Below are positions 24,001-33,000 of a stretch of DNA of 64,000 bases, piece by piece. The position numbers are program-made. Each line of letters begins with the position of its first letter. The first letter of the stretch is position 1. Source of the stretch: an uncultured Gemmatimonadales bacterium (GTDB lineage: Bacteria; Gemmatimonadota; Gemmatimonadetes; Longimicrobiales; RSA9); contig CAWAMW010000007.1 in the NCBI GenBank assembly GCA_963783305.1, positions 288,001 to 352,000 on the forward strand. Reading direction: 5' to 3'.

Positions 24001-27000
24001 AAGCGGGCAGCGCGAGAGCCATCGCTGCCCCCGGCCCCCGGCACGCCGGGCGCGCTCCAGGGATGCCGGGCCCTCAGGGCAGCAGCAGCACGCGCCCCAG
24101 CGGGGCCATGGCCCCTTCCGCGGCCAGCCCGGCCGCCAGGGTGGCCACCACGGTCGCCGCCAGCACCCACCCGGACCAGCGTCCCAGCACCGCCACGGGC
24201 GCCTCCGCCGCCGGTTGGAAGTAGGCGGGCCCCAGTACCCGGAGGTAGTAGAACAGCGAGGCCACGGTGTTGGCGACGGCGACGACGGCGAGCCAGCTGT
24301 AGCCGCCATCGATGGCGGCGCCGAAGATCATGAGCTTGCCGACGAACCCGCCGAGGGGCGGGATCCCGACCAGCGACAGGAAGGCGATGGCGAGGGCCGC
24401 GGCAACGGCGGGGCGGGCGCGGCCGAGTCCCCGGTAGTCGTCGAGGTCGGTCCGGCCCCGGAGATGGGTCACGACGGCGAACGCGCCGAAATTGGCGAGG
24501 CCGTAGGCCAGGAGGAAGAAGAGGAGGCCCGACAGGGCGAGGTCGCTCAGGCCGAGGACGGCCACGGCCACCAGCGCGTACCCGGACTGGGAGACGGACG
24601 ACCAGCCCAGCATTCGCCGGACGTCCGTCTGCCAGAGGGCGCCCAGGTTGCCGAGTGTCATGGTGACGACGGCCAGGGCGGCGATCAGCAGACGCCACGG
24701 GACGAGCCCATCGGGCAGGAGGGACACGACTCGGGCCAGCGCGACGAGCGCGCCGACCTTGGGCACCACCGTGAGGAATGCCGCAGAGGGCGCCGGCGAT
24801 CCCTCCGCCACGTCCGGGAGCCACGTGTGGGCCGGGAACGCCGCCAGCTTGTACGTCAGTCCCACCACCATGAAAGCGACGGCGACCAGCAGGCCCCAGC
24901 GCGCCCCGCCCGCTGCGCCCGCCGGGCTCGCCGCGCCGGCGGCCAGGCCCCGCCGGATTCCTTCGTACCCGGTGTCGCCGAGGAGGCCGAACAGGATCAC
25001 CACGCCGGCCACCAGCAGTGCGTTGGCCAGCGCGCCGACCAGGAAGTACTTCATCCCGGCCTCGACGGCCAGCGGCCAGTCCCGGTGGTAGGCGGCGAGG
25101 GTAAAGCCGGTGACGGACGACAGGAGCACGGCCACCACCAGCTGCATCGTGTCGGCGGCGCCAGCCATGAGCACCGCCCCCACCGTCGACAGGAGGAGAA
25201 CGGCGTAGAACTCGCCGTGGCGGCGGTCGCTGCGGAACCAGTCGGGGGCCAGGCCGAGGGCGAGACCGGCGAAGAGGAGGATCATGAGCCGCGCGGCGAT
25301 GGTGGCGCCGTCGAGGGCCCAGGTCCCGTGGAAGGTGAGCCGCGCGGGTCCCCCCACCTGGCGGACGCTGAGCCAGGCTGCGGCGGCGAGGCCGGCGAGT
25401 GCGAGGAGGGCGCAGAGGGTGTGTCGTCTGTGGGGGATGAACGCGGCCACCAGTAGCGTGACCACGGCGGCCACGACCAGCGCGATCTCCGGGAAGAGGT
25501 CGCCTACGGGCATCAGCCCGCTCCCACCAGGACGACGGCGGCGCTCTCGACCAGCGTCAGTAGGAAGCGCGGGTAGACGCCGATGAGCACCACGAGGGCC
25601 AGGAGCACGCCGAGCACCAGCCGCTCCCGCAGCCCCAGGTCCGGGAAGTCCGTCCACCGCTCCGGGAGCGCGCCGAAGAAGAGGTCGCGGAGCATGAGGA
25701 GGAAGAGCGCGGCGGTCACCAGGACGCCGACCAGGGCGAGGCCGGCGAGCCAGGGGAAGACGCCGAAGGTGCCGATGAAGATCTGGATCTCGGCCACGAA
25801 CCCGGCCAGGCCCGGCAGCCCGAGGCTGGCGAAGGCGGCCAGCGTGGTGGCCGTGGTCAGGACGGGCGCGGGGCCGGCCAGGCCGCCGTAGGCGTCCAGG
25901 TCGTATTCCTCGGTCCGCTGCCAGAAGGAGCCGGCGATGAGGAAGAGCGCGCCGGTGATGAGCCCGTGGGCGATCATCTCCACCGTGGCCCCGGTGAGGG
26001 CCAGCCGGCGGGCGGCCTCCGCCCCCGGCACCATGGCCCCCGCGGCGGCGATCCCGAGCACCGTGTAGCCCATGTGATTCACCGACGTGTACGCGATTCG
26101 CCGCTTCAGGCTCGACTGCGCCAGCGCCACCAGCGCGCCGTAGACGATGGATACCACGCCGATCACGCCGATGACCAGCGCCCACCGGTGGAAGGTCTCC
26201 CGCATCATGGAGTACGGGATCCGGATCAGGCCGTAGGTCCCCATCTTCAGGAGCACGCCGGCAAGGACGGTGGACGCTGGGCCGGGGGCGTCGACGTGGG
26301 CGGGCGGGAGCCAGGTGTGGAAGGGGACCACGGGCGTCTTGATCCCGAGCCCGATCCCCAGCCCCAGGAGCGCGAGCCCCGCCATCCCGTGGCCGGCCAG
26401 CGGCTGCTGGGCGATGAGCGCCCGCATGTCGAAGGTGTGGGGATCGCTGGCCAGGTAGAGCGCCAGGATCGCCAGCAGCATGGTGAGGGAGCCGGCCAGC
26501 GTGTAGAGGAAGAACTTGAGCGCGCTGCGCCGGGCGTCGCCGTGTCCCCAGCGGCCGATGAGGAAGAACATCCCCACGAGGCTCAGGTCGAAGAAGACGT
26601 AGAAGAGGAGGAGGTCGAGGGCCAGGAACACGCCCAGGGAGACGCCCTCCAGGAAGAGCAGCCAGGCGTAGTACTGACGGGGCCGCCCCAGGGTGTCCAC
26701 CGGGTACGCCACTGCCCCCGTGAACAGGAGGGCGCTCATGGTGGCCACGGCCAGGGAAATCCCGTCCACGCCCAGACGGTAGCCCACGCCCAGCGACGGG
26801 ATCCACGGCACGTCCGTCACCAGCTGGAACTGGGGGCCGCCCATGTCGAACCCGAGCCAGGCCACGACCAGCAGCGCGAGCGGAACGGCCGCCGACGCGG
26901 TCGCGAAGAGGCGCGCGGCGCCCTCCGTCCAGCGATTCGACACGACCAGCGCCGTGGCGGCCGCGAGGGGCAGGACCAGCGAAGCCGTCAGCAGCATTCC

Positions 27001-30000: not shown

Positions 30001-33000
30001 GGGCCCCGGCAGCCACGGCCCGAGCCAGCCGCCCAGGTAGACCGTCGCCGCCACGGCCGCAAAGGCCACCAGCATGGCTCGCCGAGCCAGCTCCCACACC
30101 AGTCGCGACGGGCCCGACACCTCGGCGGCGGTGCCTCCGGCCAGGTCCCGGGAGTCGGCGAAGTCCAGCGGCCCCCAGAAGGCCACGCCCAGCCCCACGA
30201 ACAGGAAGAGTGGGAGCCCCAGCGGCTGCCGGACCACGTTCCACAGCCCGCGCTGGGACTCCACGATGGCGGACAGCCGGAGCGACTCGGCCGGGAGGGC
30301 CGCGGCAATGAGGACGAACATGCTGACCAGCATGTAGGCCAGCCCGAGGGCCACGTAGCGGTAGCCCCCGATCAGGGGGAGCGGCGCGTTCGCCGACCAC
30401 CCATGGAGGAAGATCGCCACCACCGCCAGAGACTCCACCGCCCCCCATAGCACAATACCCGCGGCCACGTCTCCCGGCGCCGAGGCGGCCGACCACGGCA
30501 CGACTCCCAGCCCCACCGCCGCCAACCCCAGGTAGAGAGCCGGGGCCAGCACCCACGCCGGTCCGTCCGGCCGCTCCGTGTGGCTCCGCTGCTGAACCAG
30601 CGTCAGCGCCGCTCGCCGTGCCGGCCCCAGCGGATCCAGCCGCGGCCGCCGCCTCGCCACCACCGCACCCGCCACACCGTCCATCAGTGTGAACAGCCAC
30701 ACCCCCGCAAGCAGGGCGACGCCCACCACCGCCAGGGCCAGGAGCGGAGACACGGGCGCCGGCATCAGGGGGTCTCCTCGAACCCGGCTGGGGCGCCACC
30801 GGCGGGGGCGTACGTCCGGGCGTTCAGCAGCAGAACCGCCTCTCCCCACTCCAGCCCCGGCAGCCGGTCGGCCAACGCAGCGGCGTCGCCCCGGGGCACA
30901 TCGAAGGCCGCCGCTTCCGACGTCCCGCCGCCGCCGCCCGCACCGCGCCTCGCGGTCACCACCCCCTCCCGAGCCGACGCCAGTCCCTCCCGCAGCAGCC
31001 CCCGCACGTCCTCCCCCGCCACCCGCGCCGGGAGCGCCGCCAGCGTCCCGCCCCGGCGCGTCCACCGTTCCAGCCGACGCACTTCGCCTGGCGCGACTCT
31101 TCGTGCGAGGGCGAGGGACAGGGCCCGGTCCCCCAGCGCCGTCGCCCCCGCGACCCGGAGAAGCCGCGCCGACCAGCGCAGGAGCCGACGCGCCCTCTCC
31201 ACGTCGCCGTCACGCGTTGCCCCGGGCCGGAAGGCGTCCTCGGGGAAGGGCGGCTCCAGCACCTCCGCCTCCTGGATGACGTCCCCCTGGAGCGCGAGGC
31301 GCAGCACCAGGCCTGGTGGGAAGGGCGGGAAGAACGGGCCGACGGTGAGCTCGAGGCGGTCGAGGGCGAGGCCGTCGCGGCCGTCGTCGTCGGTCATGGC
31401 CATGGGGCGGCCGTACGGCACGCCGCCCATCATCCCCTCCCCGCCCTGGCCGTGGTCGCCGCGTCCGCGCCACGGGTGGGGCGGACGATCCGGCCGGCGG
31501 TGCCCCTCCGATTCCCGCTCTCCGAGAACCAGCGACCGGTGCAGGGAGCGCAGCGCCGGGACGGGATCCGCCTCCGTCGGCACCCGGTCCGGCGCCGACC
31601 CCCCCTTCGGCGCTATCCCCCCCTGCAGCCCCGGAAGCGGCGCGTCCGCGCCCCAGCGGAGCGTCGTCCGGGGGTGGGGCACCTGGTCGTGGACGCGGTC
31701 CAGCGCTTCCTGGAACCGGAGCGGAATGGCGCCGGCGACCAGCAGCACCGTGGCGTGGCGGGGCGAGTCCACCAGCCGGATCCCCGGGCGGAGCCGGAGC
31801 GCCTCGACCCGCTCCCGGGCGCCCGCGCCCACGGCCGCGAAGACGGGAGCGGGCGCAGATGCGGCCAGCCGACCGGCCACCCGCCGGAGCCCCGTCACTG
31901 CCACCGGAAAATCCCCTCGCGCCACCCGTAGACGATTCCCACCGACAGGATGGCCAGGAACATCCCCATCTCCATCAGCGCCTTCATCCCCTCCTGGACG
32001 TACACTACCGCCCAGGGGTACATGAACATCATCTCCATCTCGAAAGCGATGAAGAGGAGGGTCATGGAGTAGTAGCGGACGTGGTAGCGGCTCCAGGCGT
32101 GGGTCGCCGGCTCGCCACCACCGAGGAAAGGCGCGGCCTGCGGGTCGGTCCGCGGTCGGCGGTCGAGCCGGTCGAGCACCACCTGCACGGCCACGGCGAG
32201 AGCCATGGGCGTCACGAAAAGCACGAGCAGTGCGGCCAGGGTAGTCATGACGCGGTCCGGCCCCGCAGAACCCACGCCAGCATCACGGACAAGGACGGAA
32301 CCCGGCCGTCGGCGAGCACCCTGCCCGTGGCCGTCGTGGCGAGCCCCCTTCCGGGGTCTTTACTCAGATCGCGTCATACGACTCCGCGGCTCCGCCCGGC
32401 CGGGCGAAAACGCCCGGAACGCCGCACGGTACCGCTCGAGCTCCACGCCGATTCGCGCGCCCGGATCTCCTCGTGGTGCGCGCCCAGCGCCCAGTACTCG
32501 AGGAACAGCCGCGTATGCTCCGGCTGGTGCGACTGCCGCGTCTGCGCCGCTTCGGTCCCGCTGGACGTGCGGTGGGACGTGCGCCCTCTATTGACCAATT
32601 GGAAAGTAAGTACTATGTTGAACTTTCCGAGTGGTCAATAGGCCAGCACCGACCGCTCATCACCACTGGCGATCCGCGCCGGTCGGCTCCTCCCTCTCTG
32701 AAGGGATCGCACATGAGGACCTCACGAGTGTCGCAGGACGCTTCGGTTGTTGGAGGCCGGGGGGCGACCTGGAGGCGGCCATCGCTGGTGGTGGGGATCG
32801 GGGCATCGGCGGGGGGTCTGAAGGCGCTGCAGCAGTTCGTGGAGGCGGTGCCGGCGGACAGCGGGCTGGCGTTCGTGGTGATCCTGCACCTGGATCCGAC
32901 GCGGGAGAGCCGGATGGCGGAGCTGCTCCAGGACCGGGCGGCGATCCCGGTGACGCAGGTGGTGGGGCCGACGAGGGTGGCCGCGGATCACATCTACATC

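Follow-up and report, generated by a model that had tools for sequence, protein, structure and literature searches.

An operon for a second complex I membrane arm

The presence of a second set of genes for the complex I membrane arm, in a genome whose canonical nuo genes lie elsewhere (C7, ~640-655 kb), raises the question of what such a complex moves and what drives it. The window, i.e., the whole 64-kb stretch of DNA that was analysed, contains eight open reading frames on the minus strand in the order nuoA-X-H-J-K-L-M-N. Seven of them match Pfam models above the cut-off: nuoA-like (31895..32248, 117 aa), nuoH-like (29836..30765, 309 aa), nuoJ-like (29237..29839, 200 aa, with a His-rich C-terminal tail), nuoK-like (28935..29240, 101 aa), nuoL-like (27001..28932, 643 aa), nuoM-like (25513..26997, 494 aa), and nuoN-like (24074..25513, 479 aa). 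The membrane subunits A, H, J, K, L, M, and N are thus all present, and the eighth gene, X (30765..31904, 379 aa), lies between nuoA and nuoH. All frames are open and translationally coupled, with junctions of 1-10 nt overlaps or 2-3 nt gaps, which bears out the preliminary description of an eight-gene operon. A pseudogene relic can be ruled out because the frames are open, the residues invariant, and the junctions coupled. No sigma-70 promoter was found on the operon strand.

X is a fusion of NuoB and NuoD folds without cofactors

The Pfam match of X to NuoB (PF01058) is weak and below the cut-off (E 9e-5). The X profile (A1) matches PSST at E 4e-8, repeating the earlier hit to NuoB/PSST, and a profile that includes longer X homologues matches NuoD/NdhH along its length (E 2e-23). 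The AF2 model of X (pLDDT 86) matches PSST 8iuf_S7 at residues 1-132 (Z 11.3, rmsd 2.9, 123 aligned) and NuoD 8qby_D at residues 181-370 (Z 12.0, rmsd 3.2, 185 aligned). Models and profiles therefore agree with the earlier claim of a NuoB fold fused to a shrunken NuoD fold, except that the shrinkage holds here and not in the X of other clades (420-580 aa), where the NuoD part is nearly full length.

The X of this operon contains no Cys, and the most Cys-rich alignment column has one in 26 of 95 homologues. Canonical NuoB has the four Cys that bind N2 and X has no conserved Cys column, so the claim that X cannot bind cluster N2 stands. That X is free of Cys is true of this operon and of the N2 positions; some other X carry Cys inside an inserted heavy-metal-binding domain (HMBD), away from those positions. 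In the profile alignment to NuoD/NdhH, both His of the GPxHP..HG loop are substituted: GPHHPSMHG of NdhH aligns with a His-free loop, and the His pair of the quinone site is absent. Sequence and model together support the view of X as a cofactor-free NuoB-NuoD fusion that would receive no redox input.

The two folds are joined by a Met/His loop (residues 145-170; 31395..31472, minus strand; low pLDDT) with H151, M158, M159, M168, and M170, a putative cytoplasmic docking site for Cu(I). The HMBD inserts (PF19335 above cut-off in 7 of the 13 X from Actinomycetota that were scanned) sit at the position of this loop, as do the His-rich inserts of other clades. His-rich tails are present in both J and X.

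The family is widespread, patchy, and probably independent of NuoC and NuoI

We again found 543 X homologues. These gave 287 loci, where 307 had been counted before; the 80 loci kept for analysis and the complete gene order in 67 of them were reproduced. A search for NuoJ-type proteins returned 2,365 at E 1e-30. The distribution among kin is patchy, with the operon in 2 of 60 relatives. Many hosts are marine or halophilic, judging by record titles, and others are soil, glacier, and clinical isolates. Family members occur on Pseudonocardia, Arthrobacter, and Rhodococcus plasmids, and a truncated copy on a Streptomyces plasmid.

As described before, the operon is not accompanied by nuoC, I, E, F, or G: the genome's own canonical NuoI, G, F, E, and C gave no tblastn match at 1e-5 in 120 stretches (the 80 loci and 40 actinobacterial stretches). 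Canonical NuoD matched 9 of these stretches and NuoB 1 at the same threshold, the inspected matches falling in X. Most hosts (46/50) also have a canonical nuo operon, from which subunits might be borrowed. In a genome-wide search, NuoC and NuoI were not found in 4 of 5 hosts tested; these four, all Halomonadaceae that carry the operon, also had no detectable canonical NuoD or NuoJ. Hence, borrowing of NuoC/I is not required and can be ruled out as an obligatory step, which answers the caveat raised earlier for these four genomes. These data support the classification of the complex as a redox-independent ion transporter.

Methionines line the NuoA/J/K region

The alignment confirmed that the central Lys/Glu of L, M, and K are kept and that a NuoN Glu and part of the NuoH acidic loop are lost. 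The proton axis of the nuoL-like protein is intact (E138, D172, K216, H241, H321, H325, K329, K383). The nuoM-like protein keeps K220, K251, H308, H344, and E403, with GluTM5 replaced by Asp137, and the nuoN-like protein keeps K222, K252, and K393, has Leu at GluTM5, and gains an invariant H143. In the nuoH-like protein, the acidic loop of the quinone cavity is partly lost, the TM4 Glu and a later Glu are substituted, and there is no Met enrichment.

About 14 near-invariant new methionines lie in NuoA, J, and K, where they occupy those faces of the helices from which the cation site of Mrp is built. They are most numerous in TM3 of NuoJ and the loop behind it (29570..29659, minus strand), which contain M61, M62 (Y59 in Escherichia coli), M66, M69, M73, M77, M78, M86, M88, and H90, as well as a new E65; the TM3 Gly of complex I is replaced. 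The methionines span the whole of TM3, and M62/66/69/73/77 share one helix face (R 0.88). The nuoK-like protein keeps E35/E73 and has new M29, M31, M67, M70, and M74; the nuoA-like protein keeps E70/E72 (canonical D79/E81) and has new conserved M62, M71, M73, M76, M94, M96, H50, and H56.

These residues distinguish the family from canonical complex I. J M61, 62, 66, 69, 73, 77, 78, 86, 88, and H90 are in all 81 X-type J and absent or rare in 24 canonical J; the same is true of K M29 and M70 (all 76 X-type against 30 canonical K) and of A M71, 73, and 76 (all 85 against 15 canonical A). All 27 actinobacterial and plasmid copies keep M28, 61, 62, E65, M66, 69, 73, 77, 78, 86, 88, H90, and M138 in J, M29, 31, 32, and 70 in K, and H56, M73, 76, and 94 in A. 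The median Met content is higher than in canonical copies in A (8.5 vs 4.2%), J (8.5 vs 3.9%), and K (8.9 vs 4.9%), and lower in H (2.7 vs 4.1%); in X-type L/M/N it is 2.2-3.0%, the canonical L/M/N being only 1-2 sequences. A generally Met-rich composition is thus ruled out, since H, L, M, and N are not enriched. At the level of sequence, there is thus a conserved series of transmembrane Met/His that could form a path of the kind expected in a Cu(I) exporter. The Mrp cation site (E706a, H37c, H40c, E137d) corresponds here to Met62, with the new Glu65 nearby, to Met/Glu in K, and to Leu in N; in the accessible text of the Mrp study, Y59 is the counterpart of the cation-binding E706 (PMC7419157).

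Copper genes are frequent neighbours

In 20 of 50 genomes, the operon has a multicopper oxidase or Cu-ATPase no more than 15 kb away, against 1.0 expected and 0 of 46 for canonical nuoJ, in counts where genomes are not independent and mobile genes gather in metal islands anyway. A copper-type marker is found at 40 of 80 loci (50 if YHS is counted), with a YHS gene directly upstream in 12 of 80. In a second sample, found via J without use of neighbours, 15 of 20 Actinomycetota have copper context, and many actinobacterial loci read copA-csoR-copZ-nuoA in one orientation. Some operon copies lie in metal islands of plasmids. Most of the neighbours that recur are specific for Cu (CopB, CueR, CsoR, CopZ, CusF); others are CopC/CopD, DsbD/ScsC-like proteins, cytochromes c, CtaG, and oxidases, and some loci are also near CDF, Zn/Cd-type ATPases, or mer/ars genes. 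In a quick NuoM tree, each major branch contains loci with copper neighbours; this tree lacks the HMBD clade, has a single long canonical outgroup, and was used to draw neither root nor donor.

CsoR-type palindromes (TAC-N9-GTA; consensus from PMC3902906) lie just upstream of nuoA at some actinobacterial loci, e.g., between copA and nuoA on a Curtobacterium plasmid, 20 nt ahead of the nuoA start. They occur in 9 of 39 upstream regions against ~2.5 expected, in a set partly picked for csoR/YHS neighbours, and several fall in divergent promoters shared with csoR. Among 87 mostly proteobacterial nuoA upstream regions, the CueR, CusR, cop-box, and CsoR patterns show no enrichment (CsoR-type 3 vs 2.6 expected; CueR 3 vs 1.9). 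There is no copper marker in this 64-kb window, nor in 40 kb of the closest relative (G037). Of the loci with at least 9 kb of upstream sequence, 23 of 59 have no marker, and among eight further plasmid loci from Actinomycetota, five are without a clear copper gene. When marker-less loci in nine genomes were extended by 20 kb on each side, only P1B-type ATPase or MerR-type matches appeared, in four of them. Therefore, many copies truly lack copper neighbours.

A proposed proton-driven copper exporter and its rivals

The best reading of these sequences is that the operon encodes a proton-driven Cu(I)/Ag(I) exporter, to which we give a probability of about 60%. The complex would probably spend the proton gradient on expelling copper and not on respiration. 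The earlier interpretation was right about the cofactor-free fusion, the missing redox input, and a redox-independent ion transporter; it did not say which ion is moved and overlooked the Met lining of NuoA/J/K, the copper context and regulation, and the metal-binding inserts of X.

We propose that the eight gene products assemble into a membrane arm shaped like that of complex I, with X as its cap. Driven by the proton-motive force, this arm would run backwards and act as an antiporter of cations and H+ similar to Mrp, with a path suited to soft metals. Redox chemistry is absent at the level of sequence and model. Genomic context, fusion, and conservation suggest that Cu(I) would pass from CopZ, a YHS protein, or the HMBD or His/Met insert of X itself to the Met/His loop of X, and from there to cytoplasmic Met/His of J, A, K, and N. 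It could then follow a Met ladder made up by TM3 of J, TM2/3 of K, and TM2 of A, where E65 of J and E35/E73 of K would pair with its charge, a path drawn on these residues by homology to Mrp and CusA. The drive would come from H+ taken in by L (and M) and conducted by the intact axis of Lys/His/Glu, with a presumed stoichiometry of at least 2 H+ per Cu+ to overcome the membrane potential. Outside, Cu(I) may be oxidised or bound by the adjacent multicopper oxidases, CopB, or Cus in Gram-negatives. There is somewhat better than an even chance that this is a new class of copper exporter, in which complex I has reverted to a secondary antiporter with an E-channel region Met-lined for Cu(I)/Ag(I) and a cofactor-free docking cap fed by CopZ/YHS/HMBD domains. 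To our knowledge, transport of a transition metal is not known for any member of the complex I/Mrp superfamily. Against copper export stand the lack of a copper marker in this window and the replacement of NuoN GluTM5 by Leu, its equivalent E137d being essential at the Mrp cation site. The marker-free loci of other genomes, the lack of an enriched operator motif in the mostly proteobacterial set, and the probable S. lividans members outside the copper-induced genes count against it too.

The identical Met/His and neighbourhood evidence would also suit a copper path of opposite sign, i.e., a regulated Cu(I) importer or a supplier of periplasmic cuproenzymes instead of a detoxifying pump. CopC/CopD, DsbD/ScsC-like proteins, cytochromes c, CtaG, and oxidases nearby favour this, as does the lack of copper induction of the probable family members SLI1027-1034 in S. 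lividans (PMC3698927). We consider it unlikely, because cation import should require no three-subunit proton machine and because co-orientation behind csoR-copZ and copA, with CsoR-type operators, points to expression in copper excess. Copper, silver, or another soft metal might instead be bound and not translocated, in a metal-gated proton conduit or a sensor, or the complex might export Ag, Au, or Hg. Without NuoN GluTM5 the small subunits might become uncoupled, the His-rich tails of J and X fit binding, and the CDF, Zn/Cd-type ATPase, and mer/ars genes near some loci fit other metals. These options appear distinctly improbable given the path-like run of Met along one face of the whole J TM3 and the mostly Cu-specific neighbours.

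The 'partial nuo operon' of marine actinomycetes has been interpreted as serving adaptation to salt or alkali, and the complex might accordingly be a Na+(K+)/H+ antiporter or a proton pump, a reading that agrees with the Mrp homology and the many marine or halophilic hosts. We give it very little credence. Thioether ligands suit soft metals and not Na+, so the lining does not fit; there is neither a homologue of MrpE/F/G nor an equivalent of E137d; the soil, glacier, and clinical hosts and the presence in only 2 of 60 relatives speak against it, and the copper context and HMBD fusion are left unexplained. It is nevertheless the reading in print, as far as the accessible texts go (PMC3314556, PMC6002675, PMC6676996). 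Scarcely any weight falls on a complex that is still redox-active, either a Cu(II) reductase, which is how PMC3698927 interprets the copy in its island, or a form of complex I that obtains NuoC/I/E/F/G from elsewhere. The canonical operon in 46 of 50 hosts and the frequent cytochromes and DsbD-like genes nearby would allow it. It conflicts with the absence of N2 Cys and of the quinone-site His pair, the altered NuoH cavity, and the four hosts in which NuoC, NuoI, and canonical NuoD were not found; moreover, the Cu reductase cited by PMC3698927 is, from the title of the reference, NDH-2, an unrelated enzyme.

If the complex is a copper exporter, a system for copper/silver resistance has gone unrecognised in several phyla, one that is often carried by plasmids and whose proteins databases label NADH dehydrogenase, and the published 'marine adaptation' operon would need another reading. 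It would also offer a natural test of a bioenergetic question: do ions pass through the NuoA/J/K region, and by what means is the central charged axis coupled to that region when there is no quinone chemistry?

Comparison with known systems

The operon shares with complex I (NDH-1) all seven membrane subunits in canonical order, the NuoB and NuoD folds, the central axis of L/M, and the K glutamates. It differs in that B and D are fused, N2, the quinone His loop, and C/I/E/F/G are lacking, A/J/K are Met-lined, J Y59 and the TM3 Gly are replaced, and NuoN GluTM5 is lost; it is also accessory, patchy, and often plasmid-borne. Group 4 hydrogenases, Ehr, and Mbs have a small subunit with Fe-S Cys and a ferredoxin-like subunit, whereas here X has no Cys and there is no NuoI-like gene. 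L, M, N, K, and J are homologues of MrpA-, MrpD-, and MrpC-like subunits, with higher scores on Nuo than on Mrp models. The Mrp Na+/H+ antiporter is redox-free and of the same superfamily, and the accessible text places H+ transfer in its L/M/N-like subunits and the cation site at the J/K/N-like interface (PMC7419157). Unlike Mrp, the operon has NuoH, NuoA, and the B-D cap; its eight genes include no MrpE, F, or G, soft Met ligands replace Glu/His/Ser, and E137d has no equivalent.

The preliminary description overlooked that a 'partial nuo operon' (nuoA-hypothetical-nuoHJKLMN) has been published for Salinispora, Kocuria, and Streptomyces. The accessible texts interpret it as a pump (Na+/H+ or proton) that helps adaptation to marine life, do not identify the hypothetical protein, and mention no methionines (PMC3314556, PMC6002675, PMC6676996, PMC8622039). 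The gene order is identical, with one hypothetical between A and H, and that operon is likewise described there as patchy and horizontally acquired in Actinobacteria and Proteobacteria. The two are very probably the same family, judging by gene order. The literature searched, with subscription papers mostly outside reach, contains no proposal of copper transport and no identity for X. SLI1027-1034 of S. lividans 66 are eight genes for a 'duplicate NADH-ubiquinone reductase' in a copper-gene-rich metal island, a context common with a Pseudonocardia plasmid; the accessible text likens them to NDH-2 and so takes them for a Cu(II) reductase, and they stand outside the 11 copper-induced island genes, which include the adjacent SLI1026 (PMC3698927). 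They probably belong to the X-type family, judging by their description, and that family has no redox cofactors for such a reductase.

With the HME-RND exporter CusA, which moves metal along a Met ladder according to the accessible text of PMC7558416, the family shares such a ladder, putatively for Cu(I)/Ag(I), and the proton drive proposed here; with CusA and the P1B-1 ATPase CopA together, it would share chaperone partners and metal-binding modules (CopZ, YHS, HMBD). Its fold is unrelated to theirs, and it would be an eight-subunit inner-membrane complex with neither an ATPase nor an outer-membrane channel, encoded by an operon that is also present in Gram-positives.

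An intact and widespread operon encodes a cofactor-free derivative of complex I

The operon (24074-32248, minus strand) comprises eight genes in the order nuoA-X-H-J-K-L-M-N, all of them present and open, with junctions that overlap or span 2-3 nt. Pfam assigns A, H, J, K, L, M, and N, and gives for X (30765-31904, minus strand; 379 aa) a weak NuoB match alone. The preliminary description regarded X as a Cys-free fusion of NuoB and NuoD, and we reproduced this: the protein contains 0 Cys, its profile matches PSST (E = 4e-8) and, with longer homologues added, NuoD/NdhH across the full domain (E = 2e-23), and its AF2 model (pLDDT 86) aligns with PSST (Z 11.3, rmsd 2.9, 123 residues) and with NuoD (Z 12.0, rmsd 3.2, 185 residues). 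In the profile alignment, other residues stand in X at the quinone-site His pair of NuoD/NdhH. A loop of X carries M158, M159, M168, and M170, each kept in 90-95 of 95 homologues, and H151, kept in 75. We recovered the same 543 homologues of X, and the same complete gene order in 67 of the 80 loci analysed for it, from a total that here came to 287. The operon is real, intact, and widespread, and its product is a cofactor-free complex I derivative.

The reported lack of nuoC, I, E, F, and G at these loci also held, as the canonical NuoC, E, F, G, and I of the window's genome gave no match in 120 stretches around family members. A canonical nuo operon exists elsewhere in this genome (contig C7, ~640-655 kb), and borrowing of NuoC/I had been left as a caveat. 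Canonical NuoJ was not detected in 4 of 50 host genomes, whose loci bear the titles Halomonas gemina, H. korlensis, Vreelandella glaciei, and Billgrantia antri. Searches of these four genomes (completeness figures are not given) likewise detected neither NuoC nor NuoI, and X itself is their sole NuoD-family match; the same searches detected NuoC, NuoI, and NuoD in a fifth, control genome. The X operon thus probably stands on its own. X is present in just 2 of 60 relatives of the window's organism (4 of the 60 flagged as unpublished), and the operon is therefore accessory. The window's genome gives one more weak NuoB-like match, its third (contig C16, 318570-318704), inside a 308-aa ORF without nuo neighbours.

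The operon is linked to copper genes

The first plasmid matches sit in copper islands. Recurrent neighbours of the operon include multicopper oxidase, CopB, Cu-ATPase, CueR, CopZ, CusABF, cupredoxin, DUF411, DUF305, a CsoR/RicR-type repressor, and YHS proteins. A copper-type marker occurs at 40 of 80 loci (50 once YHS is counted), with P1B and MerR profiles that also pick up Zn/Cd types. We made a genome-wide control with 50 of the 80 loci, chosen for long contigs, taking as markers all multicopper oxidase matches listed and those Cu-ATPase matches that reached 555 bits, with weaker or unlisted ones dropped. The X-type nuoJ lies within 15 kb of such a marker in 20 of 50 genomes, against 1.0 expected from marker density, and the canonical nuoJ in 0 of 46; because the genomes are related, the nominal P value overstates the significance. 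In a quick NuoM tree, copper neighbours occur in Chloroflexota, Actinomycetes, Halomonadaceae, and Alpha/Gamma branches.

NuoJ profile matches were found in 22 of 301 Actinomycetota genomes (1 unpublished), and a copper marker scoring at least 30 bits accompanies 15 of the 20 loci retrieved in this second sample. Around ten of them, probably close kin, carry copA-csoR-copZ-nuoA on one strand, with a smallest gap of ~30 nt. In this clade X is 520-580 aa long and often includes a heavy-metal-binding domain (HMBD). Of 13 actinobacterial X scanned, 7 contain this domain (PF19335) at a score above cut-off, inserted with a His/Met-rich stretch at the position of the Met loop of the window's X. At the linker position, the X of Pseudonocardia alni (L156, 12650-14062), whose annotated start is too late, contains a long repeat of His-Gly-Glu (43 His).

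Among plasmids, one of Pseudonocardia has a divergent csoR-copZ-copA by the operon, one of Curtobacterium has copZ-copA-nuoA, and that of Arthrobacter FB24 has oxidase-nuoA; M. avium pMAH135 carries the whole operon with a MerR-type regulator and a metal ATPase nearby. Five further plasmid loci inspected showed no clear copper gene. Of 39 loci, a set partly chosen for csoR/YHS, 9 have CsoR-type palindromes in the 900 nt upstream of nuoA, against ~2.5 expected. The clearest box, TAC-N9-GTA, lies 20 nt before nuoA in the Curtobacterium copA-nuoA gap and agrees with the S. lividans CsoR consensus, as excerpted from PMC3902906. A motif scan of a mostly proteobacterial upstream set found no motif enriched.

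Several other features were seen at these loci. In several Halomonadaceae the genes that come directly after nuoN are egtB-egtD, for ergothioneine, and in Jiella the same genes lie ahead of nuoA (L001, L047, L062, L063, L069, L022). One metagenome-assembled genome (G081; L040, L048) has three X-type nuoJ copies, two of them adjoining a phage terminase small-subunit gene. X-type NuoJ occurs in seven plasmid records of Mycobacterium (M. avium complex and kin; H17, H19-H24). Two plasmid records of 166,348 bp with the same X match (H6, H7) were deposited as Martelella and as Dysgonomonadaceae bacterium. Some plasmid copies are broken or truncated (L003, L005, L225, L226, L227): an ISL3 follows the start of X in Martelella, an IS3 lies within X in Pseudarthrobacter, and Streptomyces and Rhodococcus plasmids have partial operons.

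There is no copper marker in the 64 kb of the window, so that the assignment of its copy rests on residues, which agree with the family consensus, and not on context. None was found in 40 kb around the G037 copy either; two YHS genes stand immediately upstream of the copy in G008, from the same genus. Divergently from nuoA, a CheB-CheR-PAS-histidine kinase hybrid lies ahead of an MlaE/MlaF/MlaD-like ABC set and its auxiliary lipoprotein (32713-39686, plus strand), for which no link with the operon was seen at other loci. Close behind nuoN and co-oriented with it, a 6-phosphogluconate/3-hydroxyisobutyrate dehydrogenase-like NAD-binding gene (23076-23969, minus strand) is no recurring neighbour at other loci. 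A small PadR-like ORF and an 881-aa ABC permease-like ORF, both named by eye, lie at 17454-20474 (minus strand), and a similar pair at ~327-330 kb of contig C16.

Methionines are fixed in the small membrane subunits

The preliminary description proposed a redox-independent ion transporter, named no ion, and overlooked a methionine signal in A, J, and K. These subunits have about twice the canonical Met content (8.5 vs 4.2% in A, 8.5 vs 3.9% in J, 8.9 vs 4.9% in K), in a comparison with 15 canonical NuoA sequences (1 from an unpublished genome) and 1-2 canonical sequences for each of L, M, and N. The content of H is lower than canonical (2.7 vs 4.1%), and L, M, and N have 2.2-3.0%. The fixed new residues are M61, 62, 66, 69, 73, 77, 78, 86, and 88, E65, and H90 in J; M29 and M70 in K; M71, 73, and 76, H50, and H56 in A; and H143 in N. 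A core set recurs in 27 of 27 actinobacterial and plasmid copies, of which many show only ~45% identity; conservation there does not extend to A M62, M74, M96, and H50 or to K M67.

In J, M62, 66, 69, 73, and 77 share one face of TM3 (R 0.88), which is modelled as a continuous helix (52-76). M62 aligns with E. coli Y59; at that position the Na+/H+ antiporter Mrp has E706, which binds cations together with two His of MrpC (NuoK) and MrpD E137, according to passages of PMC7419157. A methionine ladder carries Cu(I) in the copper exporter CusA (PMC7558416, in part). L and M retain an intact proton axis, and N its three lysines; GluTM5 is Leu in N and Asp in M.

A putative proton-driven copper exporter

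The system combines a lack of redox cofactors, an intact proton axis, invariant Met, His, and Glu in its small subunits, linkage to copper genes, and a metal-binding fusion, and its most likely function is that of a proton-driven Cu(I)/Ag(I) exporter (probability about 0.6). Cu(I) would be received at the cytoplasmic cap, by the X loop or HMBD, the J loop, and the His of A and N, and would then pass along J TM3 and K TM2/3. Protons entering via L and M would drive it outward, presumably at least 2 H+ per Cu+ because of the membrane potential. The main gap in this mechanism is that NuoN has lost its Glu; one may speculate that the new J E65 takes its place.

Copper genes would also surround a system for copper import or cuproenzyme supply. 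We consider this unlikely, and favour export, because an importer would not require such machinery and because copper excess is the condition under which CsoR operons are expressed. The methionines might bind metal without Cu flux, or serve another metal, a doubtful reading. Na+/H+ antiport is quite improbable given the fixed Met/His set, even if passages of PMC3314556 read this gene order as a partial NDH-1 that would pump Na+ or H+, a reading repeated in those of PMC6002675 and PMC8622039. A redox enzyme is very improbable for a cofactor-free complex; excerpts of PMC3698927 place an eight-gene copy within a metal island and call it a Cu(II) reductase, and the copy is absent from the 11 copper-induced island genes given there.

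Comparison with known systems

The gene order is already in print: the text available from PMC6676996 explicitly states nuoA-hypothetical-nuoHJKLMN, and that from PMC6002675 lists the operon in a Kocuria from a copper mineral, as well as in strains that carry additional copD and czcD. Set together by gene order and description, the genes named in these papers likely belong to the family of the X operon. The accessible part of PMC13399641 has nothing on this operon, and in the literature searched we found no proposal of copper transport by this family. If the export reading is true, it would be a new function for the known superfamily. The operon falls outside complex I, having no N2, quinone loop, NuoC, or NuoI, outside Mrp, having no MrpE/F/G and a different cation site, and outside the hydrogenase-like complexes. 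In its putative mode of working, the exporter would resemble Mrp most closely, with a lining like that of CusA.
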